Shown: positions 1 through 10,024 of the stretch, piece after piece
Layout: the number at the start of each line of letters is the position of its first letter
Position numbering within the stretch: position 1 is the stretch's first letter
Assembly: GCF_003991155.1 (NCBI RefSeq)
Contig: NZ_CP031293.1
DNA: 64,000 nucleotides
Source: Escherichia coli
GTDB lineage: Bacteria > Pseudomonadota > Gammaproteobacteria > Enterobacterales > Enterobacteriaceae
Direction: 5' to 3' (one strand)
The notes under the pieces: model-generated
What the model was told of the DNA's origin: nothing
Databases searched by the model: none
Seen by the model: the letters and a program-made list of their open reading frames with translations, nothing else
Made by a program: the position numbers and the translations under genes

Positions 1-149
1 GCGATGGCATAAATAATAAAGCCGACTAAAAAGATATGACTGTTCATAATTCACATCCTGCCAGTAGAGAGAGAATAAAGTAAGAGTTCCCGGAGTGCTG
101 AATGTATTCAGCACTCAATTGCGGTCTATTTTTTTAATTCTTAAATTTA

Positions 150-539
150 TTAGCGGGTCGCGTTATAACAGGTCACATCGACTTCAACTTTACAATCGAC
201 AACCAGATCAGCTACACAACAAATACGTGCAGGCGGATTCTCGCCAAAAAATTCTCTGAATACTTTATTAAATGACTGGAAATAGCGGGCGTCGGTCAGG
301 ATCACTTTCACGTGAACCACATCCGCCAGGCTATAACCGGCTTCAGTCATGATGTCGACACAGTTTTGGATCGCCAGTCGTGACTGTTCAACGATACCGC
401 CTTCTACCACTTCACCGTTTTTCATGGGGGTTTGCCCGGAGACGTACAGCCAGCCGCCCGCCTCAACCGCCCTGGCAAACGGCAAATGCTGCCCGCCAGT
501 GCCTGTTCCACCTTCCGTACCGTAACGTTTAATACTCAT
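150..539 (-). CDS. RidA/YjgF-family reactive enamine/imine deaminase
   Basis: ORF track 150..545; ATG at 539 preceded by AAGGAG-like SD; translation MSIKRYGTEGG...CYNATR has the size (~129 aa) and sequence pattern of RidA/YjgF proteins; starts 10 bp after the stop of the upstream deacylase gene (operon-like). Confidence 0.7.
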   Translation of the reverse strand: MSIKRYGTEGGTGTGGQHLPFARAVEAGGWLYVSGQTPMKNGEVVEGGIVEQSRLAIQNCVDIMTEAGYSLADVVHVKVILTDARYFQSFNKVFREFFGENPPARICCVADLVVDCKVEVDVTCYNATR

Positions 540-548
540 ATTCACTCC

Positions 549-1991
549 TTAATGTGAGGTCTGGCGGCGCAGGAAGCGTCCCGCACGGCCTGTAATATGT
601 TTATCGGGACCATAGCTCATAACGCCGTTCACCATCACCGCCTCAATGCCATCTGCCGGGCGTTTGGGATCAGAAAAGCTGGCAACATCACGAATGGTTT
701 GTGGATCGAACAACACCAGGTCCGCAAAATAGCCGACTTTCACCAGCCCACGCTGAGGCAGACGAAAACGGCTGGCAGAAAGCCCGGTCATTTTGTGGAT
801 AGCCGTGGTCAGTGGGAATAAGCCTTCATCACGGCAATAGTGACCCAGCACGCGAGGGAAAGCGCCCCATAAACGCGGATGCGGCATGGGATCATTGGGC
901 AGTCCGTCAGAGCCAATCATACTGACCGGATAACTCAACACTCGGCGGACGTCGCGCTCGTCCATGTTGTAATAGATAGCCCCGGCAGGCATCAGCAACT
1001 TCGCGGCCTCCAGCATACTCATCTGCCAGTCGATGGCGATTTGCGCCAGTGTTTTCCCGGCCTGCTGCGGATGTGTTTGTGACCAGGTGATCACAATATC
1101 GAATTCGTCGGTGACTTGTTTGAGATCCAGCGTTGAAGAGCTGGCTGAGTAAGGGTAGACATCGCAGCCAATTTCCTGGTGTTGACGCATTTGGTCAAAA
1201 AAGGCCAACGTTTCTTTTGTCCGCCCCCAGTTTTTCGCCCCGGCGCATTTATGGTGGGAAACCACGACAGGCACTTTGCCATGACGCCCAATACGAAACG
1301 CCTCATCCAGGGCATCGAGAATCGGTTCAAATTCAGAACGCAGATGGGTGGTATAAACGCCCTTCTCACCGGCTAATTCTTCCGCCAGCGCCATGACTTC
1401 TTCGGTAGTCGCCTGAAATGCCGTTGCATAGGCCAGCCCGGAACTTAACCCCAGCGCCCCCTGACTCAACGCCAGACGTAAGTCGGCACGCATAGCGGCA
1501 ATTTCATCCACCGTCGCCGGGCGAAACAGGTCGTCCATATGGTTATTACGCAGCGCCGTATGACCAATCAGCGTGCCAACGTTCAGTGACGGCCTGGCTG
1601 CTTCCACTGCCTGGGCATAGCTTTCAACGGTAGGATAAATAAAGTGCTCTGCTTCCCCCAACAGATTCATCGGGTCAGGAACTTCACCTTTCATTTTCGC
1701 CGACGCCGCACTAATCCCGCAGTTACCGACAATCACCGTAGTGATCCCCTGGCTGATCTTTGGCAGATATTCCGGGATGCGAATAACGTTGATATCGTCA
1801 TGGGTATGAACGTCGATAAACCCTGGTGCCAGCACCCGCCCTTCCCCGTCAATGACCTGCTGCGCCGTAACGTTAAGCGCAGGGGCAATATCGACAATCC
1901 GATCACCTGTTATTGCCACGTCACCGCGAAATTCAGGGCCGCCGCTACCGTCGATAACGGTCACATTTTTGATTAACCAGTCAACCTGCAT
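549..1991 (-). CDS. N-acyl-D-amino-acid deacylase (D-aminoacylase, amidohydrolase-3 family)
   Basis: ORF track 549..2000; likely ATG at 1991 with GGAG SD 8 nt upstream; ~480 aa with metal-binding HTHDD motif near N-terminus and overall D-aminoacylase-like sequence. Confidence 0.7.
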   Translation of the reverse strand: MQVDWLIKNVTVIDGSGGPEFRGDVAITGDRIVDIAPALNVTAQQVIDGEGRVLAPGFIDVHTHDDINVIRIPEYLPKISQGITTVIVGNCGISAASAKMKGEVPDPMNLLGEAEHFIYPTVESYAQAVEAARPSLNVGTLIGHTALRNNHMDDLFRPATVDEIAAMRADLRLALSQGALGLSSGLAYATAFQATTEEVMALAEELAGEKGVYTTHLRSEFEPILDALDEAFRIGRHGKVPVVVSHHKCAGAKNWGRTKETLAFFDQMRQHQEIGCDVYPYSASSSTLDLKQVTDEFDIVITWSQTHPQQAGKTLAQIAIDWQMSMLEAAKLLMPAGAIYYNMDERDVRRVLSYPVSMIGSDGLPNDPMPHPRLWGAFPRVLGHYCRDEGLFPLTTAIHKMTGLSASRFRLPQRGLVKVGYFADLVLFDPQTIRDVASFSDPKRPADGIEAVMVNGVMSYGPDKHITGRAGRFLRRQTSH

Positions 1992-2191
1992 GTTCGTCAC
2001 TCCATTTCTGCAATGGTGACAAGTTAACCATTTACAAGGACGAAAAACAGTGGAAAACTACGCAAAACCCAGATGATTTTATGATACTTTTATTCATAAA
2101 TAATAAGATAAATAAACTAAATATTTATATTTCATTTAGTTACAAATGATACTCACATCCGATACGGTGAAAAACTTAAAAGGTAAATGTT

Positions 2192-3412
2192 ATGAAATAC
2201 CACTCAGAACCTCTGGTTCCCCATAAATCTGCCCTGATGCAAATGCCCGCAAATCTCCTTGCCGAAGATGTCTGTTTACCTGCCGCGATCATTAAAAAGC
2301 AGGCCCTGGAGAACAACATTACGTGGATGCAACGCTACGCTGACGCGCGCGGCGTTTCACTGGCACCGCACGGTAAAACCACCATGACGCCGTGGATTTT
2401 TCAGGCGCAGCAGGCGGCTGGTGCCTGGGCAATAGGTGTCGGTAGCGCATGGCAGGCTGGTGCGGCAATGGCGAGCGGTATTCAGCGAGTGCTGATGGTT
2501 AACCAGCTGGTCGGCAAGGCGAATATGCAGTTGATTGCCCAGTTGCAACGACATTACCCGACGGTCGATTTTATCTGCTGTATCGACAGCATTGAGAACG
2601 CCCGCGCTTTGTCTGCCTTTTTTGCCAGTCAGCAACAGACACTGAACGTGATGATTGAGTTGGGTGTCCCCGGCGGGCGCTGTGGTTGCCGCTCAAGGGA
2701 TGCCGCACTGACACTGGCTAAACAGGCAGCCCAATTACCGGGGTTACGCCTGCGGGGGCTTGAGTTATATGAAGGCGTTTTACACGGTGACGCTCCACAA
2801 CCGCAGGTAGAAGCTCTGCTGCGGGATGCCGCACAACTGGCCTGTGATATGGCAAGTCTGGTTGATGGCGAGTTTATTCTCACCGGAGCAGGCACGGTCT
2901 GGTATGACGTGGTGTGCAATATCTGGCTGGCGGCAGAAAAGCCTGATAACTGCCGCATTGTTATTCGCCCTGGCTGCTACATCACTCACGACACCGGGAT
3001 CTACGACGCGGCACAACAACAGTTGCTTGCCCGTGATCCTGTGGCCTGCGATCTGGCAGGCGATCTCACATCTGCGCTGGAACTGGTCGCCATGGTGCAA
3101 TCGGTGCCGGAAGCTGATCGTGCGGTGGTAAATTTTGGTAAGCGTGATTGCGCCTTCGACGCCGGACTGCCGCAACCAGTCGCCCACTACCGCAACGGCA
3201 AATCACTGGCATTTGATCCACAGGCGATTCGCAGTACAGGTATTATGGATCAGCACTGCATGTTGCAACTGTCAGCTAATAGCGACGTGCAAGTGGGGGA
3301 TATTCTGGTGTTTGGCACATCGCATCCGTGCCTGACCTTCGACAAATGGAAAACGTTGTTATTGACTGATGACGACTACAACGTACTGGCAGAATTAGAC
3401 ACTCTCTTCTAA
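2192..3412 (+). CDS. PLP-dependent alanine-racemase-fold enzyme, D-serine dehydratase-like (DSD1)/D-threonine aldolase family
   Basis: 406 aa ORF with PHGKTT motif (candidate PLP lysine) near N-terminus; divergent from the deacylase/RidA pair; followed by a hairpin terminator. Confidence 0.55.
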   Translation: MKYHSEPLVPHKSALMQMPANLLAEDVCLPAAIIKKQALENNITWMQRYADARGVSLAPHGKTTMTPWIFQAQQAAGAWAIGVGSAWQAGAAMASGIQRVLMVNQLVGKANMQLIAQLQRHYPTVDFICCIDSIENARALSAFFASQQQTLNVMIELGVPGGRCGCRSRDAALTLAKQAAQLPGLRLRGLELYEGVLHGDAPQPQVEALLRDAAQLACDMASLVDGEFILTGAGTVWYDVVCNIWLAAEKPDNCRIVIRPGCYITHDTGIYDAAQQQLLARDPVACDLAGDLTSALELVAMVQSVPEADRAVVNFGKRDCAFDAGLPQPVAHYRNGKSLAFDPQAIRSTGIMDQHCMLQLSANSDVQVGDILVFGTSHPCLTFDKWKTLLLTDDDYNVLAELDTLF

Positions 3413-3416
3413 GAAC

Positions 3417-3451
3417 GCCCCTTCGGTTAATTATCGAAGGGGCATTTTTAT
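3417..3451 (+). terminator. Rho-independent terminator after the DSD1-like gene
   Basis: GCCCCTTCG ... CGAAGGGGC stem followed by ATTTTTATT. Confidence 0.55.
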
Positions 3452-3495: not shown

Positions 3496-3523
3496 ACCGC
3501 TCACCGCCATTCCTGACCGCTTA
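3496..3523 (+). promoter_or_regulatory. Putative BtsR (YehT) binding site: direct repeat ACCGCTCA-N12-ACCGCTTA upstream of btsT
   Basis: Two copies of ACC(G)CT(C/T)A about 12-13 bp apart, roughly 160-180 bp upstream of the btsT start; matches the reported LytTR-type BtsR motif in the yjiY promoter. Confidence 0.5.
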
Positions 3524-3679: not shown

Positions 3680-5830
3680 ATGGATACTAAAAAGATATTC
3701 AAGCACATACCCTGGGTGATTCTCGGAATCATCGGTGCATTCTGCCTCGCGGTAGTTGCATTACGTCGGGGGGAGCACGTCAGTGCCCTGTGGATCGTGG
3801 TCGCCTCTGTGTCGGTGTATCTGGTGGCTTATCGCTACTACAGTCTGTACATCGCCCAGAAGGTGATGAAACTCGACCCCACGCGCGCGACGCCTGCGGT
3901 TATTAACAACGACGGTCTGAACTATGTTCCGACCAACCGTTACGTGTTGTTTGGTCACCACTTCGCCGCTATCGCCGGTGCTGGTCCGCTGGTTGGTCCG
4001 GTTCTCGCCGCGCAGATGGGCTACCTGCCTGGCACGCTGTGGCTGCTGGCGGGGGTAGTGCTGGCCGGTGCGGTACAGGACTTTATGGTGCTGTTTATCT
4101 CCTCTCGCCGTAACGGCGCATCTCTCGGTGAGATGATCAAAGAAGAGATGGGACCAGTACCGGGGACTATCGCGCTGTTTGGCTGTTTCTTAATCATGAT
4201 CATCATCCTTGCCGTCCTGGCGCTGATTGTGGTTAAAGCCCTGGCCGAAAGTCCGTGGGGTGTCTTCACCGTTTGCTCAACCGTACCGATTGCGCTGTTT
4301 ATGGGTATCTACATGCGCTTTATTCGTCCGGGGCGTGTGGGTGAAGTCTCTGTCATTGGTATCGTGCTGCTGGTTGCCTCTATCTACTTCGGTGGCGTGA
4401 TTGCTCACGATCCGTACTGGGGTCCGGCACTGACCTTTAAAGACACCACCATTACCTTCGCGCTGATTGGCTATGCGTTTGTTTCCGCACTGCTGCCAGT
4501 GTGGCTGATCCTCGCACCGCGCGACTATCTGGCAACCTTCCTGAAAATCGGCGTTATCGTCGGCCTGGCGCTGGGTATCGTGGTGTTGAACCCGGAACTG
4601 AAAATGCCTGCGATGACCCAGTACATTGACGGTACTGGCCCGCTGTGGAAAGGCGCTCTGTTCCCGTTCCTGTTCATCACCATCGCCTGTGGTGCGGTAT
4701 CTGGCTTCCACGCGCTGATCTCTTCCGGTACGACGCCGAAACTGCTGGCTAACGAAACCGACGCGCGTTTCATCGGCTACGGCGCAATGCTGATGGAATC
4801 CTTCGTGGCGATTATGGCGCTGGTTGCTGCGTCCATCATCGAACCGGGTCTTTACTTCGCGATGAACACCCCGCCTGCTGGCCTTGGCATCACCATGCCT
4901 AACCTGCATGAAATGGGTGGCGAGAACGCGCCGATCATCATGGCGCAGCTGAAAGACGTTACCGCACACGCGGCAGCGACCGTCAGCTCCTGGGGCTTCG
5001 TGATTTCGCCAGAGCAGATCCTGCAAACCGCGAAAGACATTGGTGAGCCTTCTGTCCTGAACCGTGCAGGTGGTGCGCCGACGCTGGCGGTAGGTATCGC
5101 TCACGTGTTCCACAAAGTGCTGCCGATGGCTGACATGGGCTTCTGGTATCACTTCGGTATTCTGTTCGAAGCCCTGTTCATCCTGACCGCGCTGGATGCG
5201 GGTACCCGTTCTGGTCGCTTTATGCTTCAAGACCTGCTGGGTAACTTCATCCCGTTCCTGAAAAAAACCGACTCTCTGGTTGCCGGTATCATCGGTACTG
5301 CGGGCTGTGTGGGTCTGTGGGGCTACCTGCTGTATCAGGGCGTGGTCGATCCGCTGGGCGGCGTTAAGAGCCTGTGGCCGCTGTTCGGTATCTCCAACCA
5401 GATGCTGGCAGCCGTAGCGCTGGTACTGGGCACCGTTGTGCTGATTAAGATGAAGCGCACCCAATACATCTGGGTAACTGTTGTTCCGGCTGTATGGCTG
5501 CTTATCTGCACCACCTGGGCGCTGGGCCTGAAACTGTTCAGCACCAACCCGCAGATGGAAGGCTTCTTCTACATGGCAAGCCAGTACAAAGAGAAGATTG
5601 CTAACGGTACTGACCTGACGGCACAGCAGATTGCCAACATGAACCACATCGTTGTGAACAACTACACCAACGCAGGTCTGAGTATTCTGTTCCTGATTGT
5701 GGTGTACAGCATCATCTTCTACGGTTTCAAAACCTGGCTGAAGGTGCGTAACAGCGACAAACGTACTGACAAAGAAACTCCGTACGTTCCAATCCCGGAA
5801 GGCGGCGTGAAGATCTCTTCGCACCACTAA
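3680..5830 (+). CDS. btsT: Pyruvate/H+ symporter, CstA family
   Basis: 716 aa from ATG at 3680 (MDTKKIFKHIPWVILG...); multi-pass membrane protein sequence recognised as BtsT/YjiY; ORF track 3665..5830. Confidence 0.9.
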   Translation: MDTKKIFKHIPWVILGIIGAFCLAVVALRRGEHVSALWIVVASVSVYLVAYRYYSLYIAQKVMKLDPTRATPAVINNDGLNYVPTNRYVLFGHHFAAIAGAGPLVGPVLAAQMGYLPGTLWLLAGVVLAGAVQDFMVLFISSRRNGASLGEMIKEEMGPVPGTIALFGCFLIMIIILAVLALIVVKALAESPWGVFTVCSTVPIALFMGIYMRFIRPGRVGEVSVIGIVLLVASIYFGGVIAHDPYWGPALTFKDTTITFALIGYAFVSALLPVWLILAPRDYLATFLKIGVIVGLALGIVVLNPELKMPAMTQYIDGTGPLWKGALFPFLFITIACGAVSGFHALISSGTTPKLLANETDARFIGYGAMLMESFVAIMALVAASIIEPGLYFAMNTPPAGLGITMPNLHEMGGENAPIIMAQLKDVTAHAAATVSSWGFVISPEQILQTAKDIGEPSVLNRAGGAPTLAVGIAHVFHKVLPMADMGFWYHFGILFEALFILTALDAGTRSGRFMLQDLLGNFIPFLKKTDSLVAGIIGTAGCVGLWGYLLYQGVVDPLGGVKSLWPLFGISNQMLAAVALVLGTVVLIKMKRTQYIWVTVVPAVWLLICTTWALGLKLFSTNPQMEGFFYMASQYKEKIANGTDLTAQQIANMNHIVVNNYTNAGLSILFLIVVYSIIFYGFKTWLKVRNSDKRTDKETPYVPIPEGGVKISSHH

Positions 5831-7083: not shown

Positions 7084-7386
7084 TTATTTTTTGTTCTGAT
7101 CGCGCAGCATCGCTTCACGTAAAATTGCGTTCAGGCGAGTTTGATAGCCTTTACCTGGTCGCTTCAACCATTCCATCACATCAGAATCAATACGCACCGA
7201 GGCCTGAGTTTTCAATGGCCGATAAAACTTACCGCGTTCTGCGTTAGACCATTGCTCATCGCTGGAAGGTGGGATATCACTGTAATCAATATCTTCGTCG
7301 GATTTATTCGCCAGCGCCTTCAGTTCGGCCTCATGCTGCACATCGAGTGTAGAGGAGGTCCCTCGTTTATGTTTAACCATGCTCAT
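7084..7386 (-). CDS. BrnA-like antitoxin (ribbon-helix-helix type)
   Basis: ATG at 7386 (MSMVKHKRGTSSTLD...); downstream of and overlapping the BrnT-like gene by 14 bp in the toxin-first order typical of brnTA. Confidence 0.6.
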   Translation of the reverse strand: MSMVKHKRGTSSTLDVQHEAELKALANKSDEDIDYSDIPPSSDEQWSNAERGKFYRPLKTQASVRIDSDVMEWLKRPGKGYQTRLNAILREAMLRDQNKK

Positions 7387-7654
7387 AGCGATTCCTCTCT
7401 TTACGATCTGCTTTTCGTGCACTGATGATTCGAATAATTTCATTTCCGCTTTCGAAACGGATGGTATGCGCAACCAGAATAACCACGATGCCGTAAACCA
7501 GGCCGATTGTCTGCCAGCGATACTCACCGTTTTCTATGCGTTCTTGCTGTGACAAATGTTGTGGATCATCAAACACTAACACCGCATCTTCAAAGCGGAT
7601 GCCATGTTTCACCCGATTACTTTTGGCCTTGTTTGCATCCCATTCAAACTCCAT
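7373..7654 (-). CDS. BrnT-like toxin (DUF497 ribonuclease toxin family)
   Basis: Translation MEFEWDANKAKSNRVKHGIRFEDA... matches the conserved N-terminal signature of BrnT/DUF497 toxins; start taken at ATG 7654 (in-frame alternatives at 7660 and 7669). Confidence 0.65.
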   Translation of the reverse strand: MEFEWDANKAKSNRVKHGIRFEDAVLVFDDPQHLSQQERIENGEYRWQTIGLVYGIVVILVAHTIRFESGNEIIRIISARKADRKERNRYEHG

Positions 7655-7856
7655 TGGCATAGTTGCCATCCCTAATTGTATATACAAAAATGTATCTACA
7701 ATTATTCTGCAATTATAGCGTTGATGTTGGAAATAGCATCACGTTTTGGATAATCAACCATGAAATTGACAATGAGTGAGTTGGACTTGATTCATCCAAT
7801 AGAATTTCTCGCCTGACATGGCACACTAAACACCTCGCTGTCGTTAAGGGATTACC

Positions 7857-9023
7857 GTGAAAAACTACAAAGTCATTACCCCGCTTTTTCCTACCTATGC
7901 GCAAGTTAAGGCTATGATGAAAGCCGTCTCAGGCTATTCCCTGAAAGCGGTGCGCAATATGATTACTGCCATTCACGAGCAAACCGGTACGCCGCAAAAA
8001 CCCGTTGACTGGTCAGAACCCGACCTGTGGATCAGCGAGCGCTTAACGGGTGAAGATGCCGACATCGCCCGTCGTATTTGGGATACCGATAATCACATCT
8101 TGAACCCGCGCCACAGCTACGGCTGCTACTTATTCCTCAACTATCCCCAGTTTGAGCTGATGGAAAGCACACCAGATGATATCTGGCAGCCCACCTCGCG
8201 CGGGCAAAAATTCCTGCAAGATGACGAAAAAACGCTGCGTTCACTGGACGACCAGGAAGGCATTCTGCAACTGCTTGAGCTGCTGGCTGGCCGGGAAATG
8301 TCGCGCCGCGCCGATTTATTGCCGGAATGGCAGGCCTTTTTGCATCAGCATTCGAAATTCGCGTCAGCAAGTTCAGTGAAAAGCACGCTCTACTCCCGTC
8401 TCTATAACCTTATCGACCGTGACATGGTTAACCGTGAAGGCATGAGCTATCGCATCACCGATACCGGGCGCGCCTGGCTTGGAAAAGCGTTGCCAGCACG
8501 AAAAAGCGATCCGCGTAAAGAGCTGTTGGAAGCGGTAAAACGCTATAACGAACAGCAAAAAGAGCTGCTGCGCGAACAAATCAGCACGATGAACCCGTAC
8601 AAATTTGAGCAACTGGTTGGTCAATTACTGGAAGCAATGGGCTACGAGCAGGTCGAAGTGACCAAAGCCTCAGGCGACAAAGGTGTGGACGTGATTGGTC
8701 AGGTGCAGGTCGGCATCACCACTATTACCGAAGTGGTGCAGGTCAAAAGAATGCAGAACACTATCACTCGCCCGTATATCGACCAGTTGCGCGGGGCGTT
8801 GCCTTACCACAAAGCCATTCGCGGTACGCTCATCACCACCGGGAAATTTGCGGCGAAATGTGCAGAAGCGGCGCTCTTTCCGGGTGCCGCGCCCATTACG
8901 CTTATCGACGGCGATCGTTTACTGGAACTGTTAATCGAAAATAACGTCGGCATTCGCCGCAGCAATGCAGTGGAATTGCTGGATGTGGATTTGCAGTTGT
9001 TTGATGAGCTGGAGATGGATTAA
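7857..9023 (+). CDS. Mrr-family (type IV-like) restriction endonuclease with extended N-terminal region
   Basis: C-terminal ~130 aa carry the Mrr catalytic core (GDKGVDVIG ... EVVQVKR ... LITTGKF ... LIDGDRL); winged-helix-like segment (SYRITDTGRAWL) upstream; start codon uncertain (GTG 7857 or internal ATG). Confidence 0.65.
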   Translation: MKNYKVITPLFPTYAQVKAMMKAVSGYSLKAVRNMITAIHEQTGTPQKPVDWSEPDLWISERLTGEDADIARRIWDTDNHILNPRHSYGCYLFLNYPQFELMESTPDDIWQPTSRGQKFLQDDEKTLRSLDDQEGILQLLELLAGREMSRRADLLPEWQAFLHQHSKFASASSVKSTLYSRLYNLIDRDMVNREGMSYRITDTGRAWLGKALPARKSDPRKELLEAVKRYNEQQKELLREQISTMNPYKFEQLVGQLLEAMGYEQVEVTKASGDKGVDVIGQVQVGITTITEVVQVKRMQNTITRPYIDQLRGALPYHKAIRGTLITTGKFAAKCAEAALFPGAAPITLIDGDRLLELLIENNVGIRRSNAVELLDVDLQLFDELEMD

Positions 9024-9067
9024 AGGGCGAAATCTGCCGCCTCTACCATTACAATACGGAGTTCATC

Positions 9068-9244
9068 GTGGTCAAAGCACCAACTAAAAAAGCCAAAGCA
9101 AAGAAAAGCTCTGAAGAAACATTATGTGATACCACAAACCAATTTCGTGGTAGCGTTGAGTCCTCCGAATACAAGCACGTGGTGTTAAGCCTCGTGCTCC
9201 AGAAACTCATCAGCGATAAGTTTGAAGCACGCCGCAAAAAATGA
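9068..9244 (+). pseudogene. Truncated 5' fragment of a type I R-M methyltransferase gene (hsdM N-terminal domain only)
   Basis: Reading frame VVKAPTKKAKAKKSSEETLCDTTNQFRGSVESSEYKHVVLSLVLQKLISDKFEARRKK-stop; the SEYKHVV...ISD motif is the hallmark of HsdM N-terminal domains; frame ends after 58 codons. Confidence 0.55.
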
Positions 9245-9903
9245 TTGCCGAAGCGTTAAAAGCTGATGGGATGGAAGAAATTTATTTTTCTGGCGACAAA
9301 AAAGCGGAATCTATCGATATTTTTGACGAAGATTATCTGGCGCGAATTAACAAGATCAAACTTCCAGCAACGAAGATCCTGTTATTACAAAAATTACTGG
9401 AAAAAGCGATCAGCGAGTTCAGGAAAGTGAACCAGTTGCAAGGGATTAACTTCACCCGCCGCTTCCAGGCGATTATAGATCGTTATAATGAGCGGCGAGA
9501 AGATGATGTACTCAACGGTGAAGAATTCGATACATTCAGTCAGGAAATGATTGATATTATCTATGATATTAAAACCGAAATGGGCACCTGGGCCGATTTA
9601 GGCATTGATATTGAAGAAAAAGCCTTTTTCGACATTCTTGCTCATATGCGCGATAAATATCAGTTCACCTATGACGATGAAAAAATGCTGTCACTGGCAA
9701 AAGAGATGAAAAGCGTTGTTGACAACACATCGAAATATCCTGACTGGAGTAAACGCGATGATATTAAAGCGAAACTGAAAGTTGAACTTATTCTGCTTCT
9801 ACACAAGCATAAGTTCCCGCCAGTAGCGAATGATGATGTTTATATGGGTGTGCTGGCACAGGCAGAGAATTTTAAAGAACATCATATGAGTGCTTTAAAT
9901 TAA
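9241..9903 (+). pseudogene. 3' fragment of a type I R-M restriction subunit gene (hsdR C-terminal DUF3387-like domain)
   Basis: 220-aa ORF with EEKAFFDIL ... DWSKRDDIKAKLKVELILLLHKHKFPP, the conserved C-terminal domain pattern of HsdR; no helicase or nuclease domains upstream; begins in a different frame immediately at the stop of the hsdM fragment. Confidence 0.6.
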
Positions 9904-9910
9904 TTATGAA

Positions 9911-9936
9911 GGCCGGATACACTTTGTTATCCGGCC
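9911..9936 (+). terminator. Stem-loop (REP-like palindrome) after the hsdR remnant
   Basis: GGCCGGATA ... TATCCGGCC 9-bp inverted repeat; weak T-tract, so terminator function uncertain. Confidence 0.35.
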
Positions 9937-10024
9937 ATTCTGAATTAACGTTAATTTCTCTTCCAGATCTTTCCAGTAACGCTTTTATTATTTTCTATTT
10001 TTAGCTGGACTTTCCCTGTATTTA

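Follow-up and report, generated by a model that had tools for sequence, protein, structure and literature searches.

The 64,000-nucleotide stretch of Escherichia coli DNA analysed in this work (hereafter the window) begins, next to btsT, with genes coding for an amidohydrolase related to D-aminoacylases, a RidA-family protein and a pyridoxal 5'-phosphate (PLP)-dependent deaminase. We suggest that these genes are part of a reduced ong-type cassette for the import and breakdown of an oxidised N-acetyl-hexosamine, i.e., an acid of the N-acetyl-glucosaminic type, a reading to which our comparative analysis would assign a probability of about 0.8. Such a compound is a sugar acid and, formally, an N-acetyl-D-amino acid. 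The homology with the ong genes, the polar substrate pocket of the deacylase and the presence of sugar-acid kinases, aldolases and a GH20 hexosaminidase in the clusters of relatives, taken together, make an oxidised N-acetyl-hexosamine the most likely substrate, rather than a proteinogenic N-acyl-D-amino acid.

The gene starts and the neighbours lying off the window are those of the RefSeq annotation of NZ_CP029747.1 (E. coli 2016C-3878), which is 100% identical to the window; L001 coordinates minus 15000 give window coordinates. Three genes, each defined by its open reading frame (ORF) and its RefSeq start codon, are wholly contained in the window: the RidA-family gene (OngD-like, 129 amino acids; positions 150-539, minus strand), the deacylase gene (OngB-like; 549-1991, minus strand) and the gene of the PLP deaminase (OngC-type, 406 amino acids, "amino acid deaminase" in RefSeq; 2192-3412, plus strand). 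The next gene after the RidA gene, on the same strand, codes for a sodium:solute symporter (OngIT-like, 489 amino acids); according to RefSeq its first 47 nucleotides fall at positions 1-47 of the window (minus strand, start codon 47-45) and the remainder lies outside. A convergent gene coding for a MurR/RpiR regulator (OngR-like, 287 amino acids) is located wholly beyond the window start, between the symporter gene and tsr. The unit is a five-gene island (regulator, symporter, RidA, deacylase and deaminase), not a trio. The sequence-only reading of this DNA had described a D-amino-acid catabolic trio made up of a deacylase, a RidA and a DSD1-like protein. The positions of the three ORFs and their families are borne out by the ORFs themselves and by the Pfam and PDB matches, and the proposed logic (deacylation, PLP-dependent beta-elimination, imine hydrolysis by RidA) stands; the genes are, however, five, and the substrate class is likely a sugar acid, so that the interpretation as a whole is partly supported. 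Between the stop codon of the deacylase gene and the ATG of RidA there are 9 nucleotides (ggagtgaat), not the 10 bp given there, and they embed a GGAG ribosome-binding site.

The closest known system is the ong cluster of Pseudoalteromonas prydzensis ACAM 620, which catabolises N-acetyl-D-glucosaminate (GlcNAc1A), a product of chitin oxidised by lytic polysaccharide monooxygenases (LPMOs), to 2-keto-3-deoxy-gluconate (KDG) (Jiang et al. 2022, PMC9537276). It includes the genes for OngR (MurR/RpiR), OngIT (a sodium:solute symporter, SSS), OngB, OngC, OngD (RidA), KdgK, the GH20 hexosaminidase OngA and a TonB receptor; knockouts of each ong gene did not grow on GlcNAc1A, OngD being essential as well, and OngR represses the ongCRBD operon (PMC9537276). 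In vitro, OngB and OngC convert GlcNAc1A to D-glucosaminate (GlcN1A) and then to KDG, with OngC yielding KDG and NH3 without water as a co-substrate, while OngIT is needed for uptake (PMC9537276). The reference proteins used for computing identities were those of the ong locus of Pseudoalteromonas sp. ZZD1, a close relative with 92% identity between its OngB and that of P. prydzensis (PpOngB). In full-length alignments the island proteins share with them 44% (OngR), 58% (OngIT), 84% (OngD), 54% (OngB) and 45% (OngC, over 386 amino acids) of their residues. Jiang et al. recognise an ong cluster by at least four co-occurring homologues, each with more than 30% identity (PMC9537276); with adjacent OngC, OngD, OngIT and OngR homologues at 45, 84, 58 and 44%, respectively, the E. 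coli island is a cluster in this sense. Indeed, in their Supplementary Data 3 some E. coli strains (e.g., CVM N36401PS and E308) appear as ong-positive, with ongC, ongR, ongB, ongD and ongIT, and with lpmo, ongOT-1, kdgK and ongA marked as absent (PMC9537276). The ongC tag listed for E308, DQW89_RS21270, is the "amino acid deaminase" of the E308 island, which is 98.4% identical to the window island and occupies the same tsr-adjacent site. Thus, the island belongs to an already known kind of cluster, noted bioinformatically. It shares with the ong cluster the clustering of the five protein families and, within OngB, the metal site, the catalytic Asp and six of the seven pocket residues. The order of the genes is different, since ongCRBD forms one operon in Pseudoalteromonas, whereas E. 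coli has ongC in divergent orientation to ongB-ongD-(ongIT), and ongR in a convergent one.

The deacylase (Pfam Amidohydro_3, E 2.8e-42) finds its best structural match in KleDacyl, a "D-acylase" from Klebsiella pneumoniae (PDB 9G5M, E 1e-281, 84% identity), followed by PpOngB (PDB 9KB1, E 6e-167, 53.7% identity in a gapless alignment), the D-aminoacylase AfDam of Alcaligenes faecalis (PDB 1M7J, E 5e-136, 47.4% identity) and the Bordetella N-acyl-D-glutamate deacylase BbDam (PDB 3GIP, E 6e-116). As far as sequence is concerned, the protein is closer to PpOngB than to the characterised D-aminoacylases. Its metal ligands C91, H216 and H246 and its catalytic D362 align with C97, H222, H252 and D368 of PpOngB, and all the residues common to PpOngB and the D-aminoacylases are kept. 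AfDam and 3GIP have the same subtype V amidohydrolase fold, but their side-chain pockets are hydrophobic or Arg-containing, whereas the window enzyme has Ala, Ala, Gln, Asn and Ser instead. In PpOngB the pocket is formed by Ala193, Ala256, Ser292, Gln298 and Gly348, plus the sugar-hydroxyl binders Glu226 and Ser290; at the positions of the first five, the D-aminoacylases carry Phe, Met, Thr, Leu or Arg, and Met (Wang et al. 2025, PMC12017989). Six of these seven OngB-specific residues are the same in the window protein (A187, A250, S284, S286, Q292 and E220). PpOngB is crippled by the substitutions S292T and Q298A/N (the positions of S286 and Q292 in the window protein), its Glu226, the equivalent of Glu220, binds the C4 hydroxyl, and a homologue 57% identical to it, an identity comparable to that of the window deacylase, is specific for GlcNAc1A (PMC12017989). 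Neither the hydrophobic AfDam pocket (Phe, Met, Leu, Met, Thr) nor the Arg pocket of BbDam is matched by the corresponding residues A187, A250, Q292, N342 and S286; in the phmmer alignment AfDam Arg297, not Leu298, is opposite Gln292, and neither of the two is a Gln. To judge from these residues, the predicted pocket is a polar sugar pocket of the OngB type and not a hydrophobic D-aminoacylase one, and we propose that the enzyme might be a de-N-acetylase of N-acetyl-D-glucosaminate or -galactosaminate.

The deaminase combines the Pfam domains D-ser_dehydrat (E 2.4e-16) and Ala_racemase_N (E 1.4e-12), both above the cut-off, and matches PDB 3GWQ, annotated as "D-serine deaminase", with an E value of 2e-106, compared with only 1e-27 for D-threonine aldolases. 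Two motifs are recognisable, HGK62T, containing the PLP lysine, and H378-P-C380 (H-x-C); the latter is presumably a metal motif, as in chicken DSD and in the D-threo-3-hydroxyaspartate (D-THA) dehydratase. The domain pair (PF14031 and PF01168), the PLP lysine and the H-x-C motif are shared with DSD1/D-serine dehydratase, D-threo-3-hydroxyaspartate dehydratase and D-threonine aldolase, but the relationship with these enzymes is remote (E values of 1e-27 or weaker), several of them aligning over the N-terminal half alone. Identity with BhcC (3-hydroxy-D-aspartate aldolase) was rejected on the basis of an NCBIfam score of 103 against a cut-off of 690. By domain content and motifs, the protein is classified as a fold-type III PLP enzyme of the DSD1/D-serine dehydratase type and not as an alanine racemase, in agreement with the earlier assignment of a DSD1-like protein. 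OngC-type proteins form a clade of their own, and in vitro the substrates deaminated by OngC include D-Ser and D-Thr (Jiang et al. 2022, PMC9537276). We propose that the window protein might turn a free 2-amino-2-deoxy-aldonate into 2-keto-3-deoxy-hexonate and NH3.

Concerning the RidA-family protein, it matches Pfam Ribonuc_L-PSP (E 1.4e-23) and scores 82.2 with TIGR00004, below the family cut-off of 106.25; in alignments with RidA homologues of known structure, the Arg of its PAR motif (residues 103-105) falls on their PAR. The protein can be placed, on these alignments, among the Arg-containing members of the Rid family, in a distinct and highly conserved OngD subgroup. Since the PLP-dependent alpha,beta-elimination carried out by OngC must release an enamine/imine, and since the RidA Arg is kept, the OngD-type protein probably accelerates the hydrolysis of the imine. 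This would give a plausible role to the essential OngD, which has so far had no explanation. Of the other two proteins of the island, the symporter belongs to the Pfam SSF family (E 1e-43) and the regulator, with HTH_6 and SIS domains, is of the sugar-type MurR/RpiR kind, its best match being HexR.

The neighbourhood of the deacylase gene was compared at 80 loci, retrieved with the OngB alignment as a query from one genome per species; for the high-GC Burkholderiales and Pseudomonas, the content of neighbouring genes derives from tblastn only. The five genes are found together, in the E. coli arrangement, at 10 Enterobacterales and 3 Vibrio loci, with Franconibacter and Shimwellia harbouring the same five-gene form as E. 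coli; the Burkholderiales keep four of the five, and most Pseudomonas loci retain nothing but the regulator and the deacetylase in the vicinity. The Vibrio europaeus cluster goes on to KdgK, a 2-keto-3-deoxy-6-phosphogluconate (KDPG) aldolase of the Eda type and a GH20 enzyme, which is the canonical ong layout. In K. pneumoniae and at 8 of 13 further loci of the Enterobacterales, two different genes come after that of the symporter. One codes for a kinase of the DGOK family (PF05035, E 4e-90), 51% identical to the characterised DgoK of K-12, and the other for an aldolase of the DgoA type (NF006600, with 302 bits where the cut-off is 207), 69-70% identical to the characterised K-12 DgoA. The Klebsiella cluster has the layout of the E. 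coli one (deaminase divergent from deacylase-RidA-SSS, with RpiR beyond) and the same chromosomal neighbourhood, with lgoTRD on one side, but it counts seven genes because of the in-cluster kinase and aldolase, both lacking in the E. coli island. The K. pneumoniae deacylase, in the 479-amino acid form of KleDacyl (gene at L085/L086 10001-11440), occurs in more than 50,000 assembly blocks, and the ong-like cluster is apparently part of the core genome of that species. As for E. coli, kdgK is present on the chromosome of 5,421 of 5,426 genomes and dgoK-dgoA in 5,019 of 5,426, these being frequencies across the species.

According to the model that we propose, the Na+/solute symporter would import a free 2-acetamido-2-deoxy-aldonate, the reference substrate being GlcNAc1A, the C1-oxidised LPMO product of chitin. 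The Zn-dependent OngB-type amidohydrolase would take off the acetyl group, and the OngC-type PLP enzyme would carry out the alpha,beta-elimination of the C3 hydroxyl followed by deamination, with the RidA-type protein possibly speeding the hydrolysis of the enamine/imine to 2-keto-3-deoxy-hexonate. The chromosomal kdgK/eda genes (or dgoK/dgoA, in the case of a galacto product) might then lead to pyruvate and glyceraldehyde-3-phosphate. The MurR/RpiR regulator would repress the divergent operons until the substrate is present, and a CRP-like site suggests an additional catabolite control. With no LPMO, GH20 or TonB receptor gene next to the island, E. coli would scavenge the monomer released by other organisms or formed by oxidation. 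If this scheme is correct, the link with the ong pathway would provide a concrete nutrient for about 4% of E. coli and, apparently, for the core genome of K. pneumoniae. The island itself is, in practice, an ordinary and generically annotated set of accessory catabolic genes, located at a site already known to vary.

Several points weigh against this scheme. No gene for KdgK, an aldolase, the GH20 enzyme OngA, a TonB-dependent receptor or an LPMO is found between tsr and btsT, and the island's own genes, as we read them, do not account for a source of the substrate in the gut. The seventh pocket residue is Asn342, where PpOngB has Gly348. Related clusters of enterobacteria contain DgoK/DgoA where Vibrio has KdgK/Eda, and the sugar may be either a gluco or a galacto one. 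KleDacyl has an activity on N-acetyl-D-Met, -Phe and -Trp, although a weak one (kcat/Km 1.5-2.8 min-1 mM-1, Km 19-32 mM, with 1 mM Co2+; PMC12149444), whereas PpOngB showed none on substrates of this type (PMC12017989). Finally, our literature search found no GlcNAc1A enzyme or growth experiment on E. coli or Klebsiella proteins.

Two of these molecular details, i.e., Asn342 and the kind of kinase and aldolase, lead to a refinement of the ong reading, according to which the enterobacterial form, including that of E. coli, might be specific for the C4 epimer N-acetyl-D-galactosaminate (GalNAc1A), to be converted into 2-keto-3-deoxy-galactonate and then processed by DgoK/DgoA (the De Ley-Doudoroff route). 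We consider this a serious but minority possibility, about one that we would not bet on at even odds. In its favour, besides the DGOK kinase and DgoA-type aldolase genes that follow the symporter gene in K. pneumoniae and at the other eight Enterobacterales loci, position 342 (codon 968-966) is Asn at all 13 loci with DgoK/DgoA, which belong to two unrelated clades, and Gly or Cys at all five with KdgK. This Asn is found throughout the 13 Enterobacterales loci of the scan, as well as in KleDacyl and at the Burkholderiales loci examined, and the Asn-bearing Enterobacterales and Burkholderiales group together in 0 of 100 bootstraps of a neighbour-joining (NJ) tree. In addition, Asn342 is part of the lining of the polyol pocket and is adjacent to Glu220, which corresponds to the C4-OH-binding Glu226 of PpOngB. 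Hence the tentative idea, drawn from the alignments, that Asn342 could be the epimer-selecting residue of a sister pathway for N-acetyl-D-galactosaminate in E. coli, Klebsiella, Leclercia and others, although we lean towards doubting it. On the other hand, the E. coli island itself has no kinase or aldolase gene. D-galactonate induces dgoK/dgoA via DgoR, whereas KDG itself induces kdgK/eda via KdgR; because the gluco product would induce its own kinase and aldolase, and dgoK/dgoA need D-galactonate, a gluco product would be favoured in the five-gene form. The association between position 342 and the kinase could also be due in part to shared ancestry within clades, the sample being small and the NJ tree simple, and neither a catabolism of galactosaminate nor a natural source of GalNAc1A emerged from the literature search. 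If the enterobacterial version had indeed switched to the galacto epimer, a question with some reach, gut Enterobacteriaceae could use oxidised GalNAc, for instance from mucin O-glycans.

A generic N-acyl-D-amino-acid pathway, in which a D-amino acid (e.g., D-Ser or D-Thr) is freed by the deacylase and dehydrated by the DSD1-like enzyme, with RidA quenching the resulting aminoacrylate or aminocrotonate, appears to us improbable. It accounts for the membership of the proteins in the D-aminoacylase, DSD1 and RidA superfamilies and for the deamination of D-Ser and D-Thr by OngC, and Jiang et al. see the same logic in the catabolism of N-acetyl-D-Ser/Thr (PMC9537276). Moreover, KleDacyl, 84% identical to the window deacylase, cleaves N-acetyl-D-Met, -Phe, -Trp and -aminobutyrate (ABA), although it has been characterised with N-acetyl-D-amino acids only (PDB 9G5M/9GV8, PMC12149444). 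However, Met, Phe and Trp lack a leaving group at the beta position and would be unusable by the neighbouring dehydratase. PpOngB has a kcat/Km of 1.6 mM-1 s-1 on GlcNAc1A (PMC12017989); the kcat/Km of KleDacyl on N-acetyl-D-Met (about 0.05 mM-1 s-1) is about 30-fold lower than that, which is typical of a side activity. The pocket residues A187, A250, S286 and Q292 are the polar ones of OngB, where AfDam and BbDam have Phe, Met, Thr and Leu or Arg, the SIS-domain regulator is of a sugar type, and the clusters of relatives are linked to keto-deoxy-sugar-acid kinases, aldolases and a GH20 hexosaminidase. Comparison of the proteins suggests that the physiological substrate of KleDacyl has probably been mis-assigned; this is of some relevance, given that 9G5M, the closest solved structure, was published as a D-acylase for biocatalysis.

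Whatever the sugar, the island is an accessory one. Its five genes are carried by 193 of 5,426 complete E. coli genomes (about 4%), always on the chromosome and with 97-100% identity, in isolates from humans, poultry, pigs, cattle and water, and all five are intact and full length in the 193 genomes. In K-12 MG1655, btsT and tsr are neighbours separated by a 377-bp intergenic region with none of the island genes. Both the adjacency of tsr and btsT in K-12, which the sequence-only reading had mentioned, and its idea of an accessory cassette were thus confirmed by comparison with other E. coli genomes. Blastn of the K-12 tsr-btsT spacer against the record places the right-hand boundary of the island at 3496/3497; the island extends from -2416 to 3496 of the window (L001 12584-18496), i.e., over 5.9 kb, in place of 135 bp of the K-12 spacer, and most E. 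coli genomes match the window only from 3497 or 3434 onward. Over the five genes, 87 synonymous and 14 non-synonymous codon changes separate the window allele from that of E308, and the island genes are, on this measure, maintained and under purifying selection. The GC content is 51.5% in the island part of the window against 54.8% in the adjoining btsT-yjiA core; base composition as a sign of foreign origin was dropped, the difference being unremarkable.

The tsr-btsT spacer is a variable site, empty in K-12 and occupied in E. coli B by the hpa (4-hydroxyphenylacetate) cluster, while in E308 it harbours the five-gene island together with a hydroxyproline-type cluster (dihydrodipicolinate synthase (DHDPS)-like, aldehyde dehydrogenase (ALDH), APC permease and a frameshifted Ldh_2 gene; L089 8322-13244). 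In Klebsiella, the neighbours of the ong-like cluster are hpa or hydroxyproline-type genes and homologues of lgoTRD. These arrangements suggest that an ancient syntenic region has undergone differential loss. One might regard the E. coli island as the decaying relic of a larger region resembling that of Klebsiella, no longer supporting the pathway, given the mosaic nature of the site, including the frameshifted gene of E308, and the lack of the kinase and aldolase present in most relatives; we nevertheless hold this very unlikely, considering the five intact genes in 193 genomes, the excess of synonymous changes, the same five-gene form in Franconibacter and Shimwellia and the presence of the missing steps elsewhere in nearly all E. 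coli genomes.

The tsr gene has a sigma-28-type promoter just outside the island (L001 12524-12600), which reads TAAAGTTT-N11-GCCGACAA here and TAAAGTTT-N11-GCCGAAAA in K-12. Since this promoter is kept, the expression signals of tsr appear to be preserved despite an insertion 60 bp upstream of its start codon.

The deacylase and deaminase genes are separated by a divergent, AT-rich control region of 200 bp (1992-2191), which was analysed in an alignment of 12 Enterobacterales. Four blocks, read on the minus strand and defined by invariant columns, are invariant or nearly so across these genomes: GAGTATCAT (2146-2154), TGAATAAAAGTATCA (2082-2096), a block at 2043-2067 embedding the CRP-like sequence TGCGT-N6-CCACT (2049-2064), and CTTGTAAATGGTTAACTT (2021-2038). 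The Vibrio ong clusters have, as the counterpart of the 2049-2064 block, a better CRP-like palindrome, TGTGT-N6-TCACT. The remaining blocks (…AAAAGTATCA…, …TTGTAAATGGTTAAC…) are candidate promoter elements or a candidate OngR operator. A generic sigma-70 scan returned 3 promoter-like sites against 3.8 expected in shuffled sequence, that is, not above chance, so that the promoter assignments derive from phylogenetic footprinting alone.

An inverted-repeat search revealed two further elements. The deaminase gene is followed by an intrinsic terminator (3417-3443, plus strand), with an 11-bp stem containing seven GC pairs and then ATTTTTATTG. The 102-nucleotide spacer between the RidA stop codon and the symporter start contains a near-perfect 24-nucleotide palindrome, or hairpin (93-116, minus strand; GAGTGCTGAAT-AC-ATTCAGCACTC, as a whole GAGTGCTGAATACATTCAGCACTC), whose 11-nucleotide arms are 100% complementary. 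No counterpart of it was found in the equivalent spacer of the other Enterobacterales examined, and a role for the palindrome was set aside because it is not kept in relatives. Several other Enterobacterales have, in its place, GC-rich hairpins resembling repetitive extragenic palindromic (REP) sequences.

Other features of the window lie away from the island. A 516-amino acid ORF, antisense within btsT (4277-5827, minus strand) and without RefSeq annotation, is very probably no gene, but a shadow ORF reflecting the coding strand. A BrnA antitoxin/BrnT toxin gene pair (7084-7660, minus strand) is located between yjiA and a restriction gene, where K-12 has only mrr. The restriction gene, in the region 7857-9903, codes on the plus strand for a 388-amino acid endonuclease and occupies the site of K-12 mrr, which lies on the opposite strand there; two pseudogenes come next, both fragments of a type I restriction-modification (R-M) system, namely the N-terminal part of hsdM and the C-terminal part of hsdR. 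This strain has a remodelled "immigration control region". Immediately past the R-M fragments and upstream of symE, at 9250-10000, the GC content falls to 0.37-0.43.

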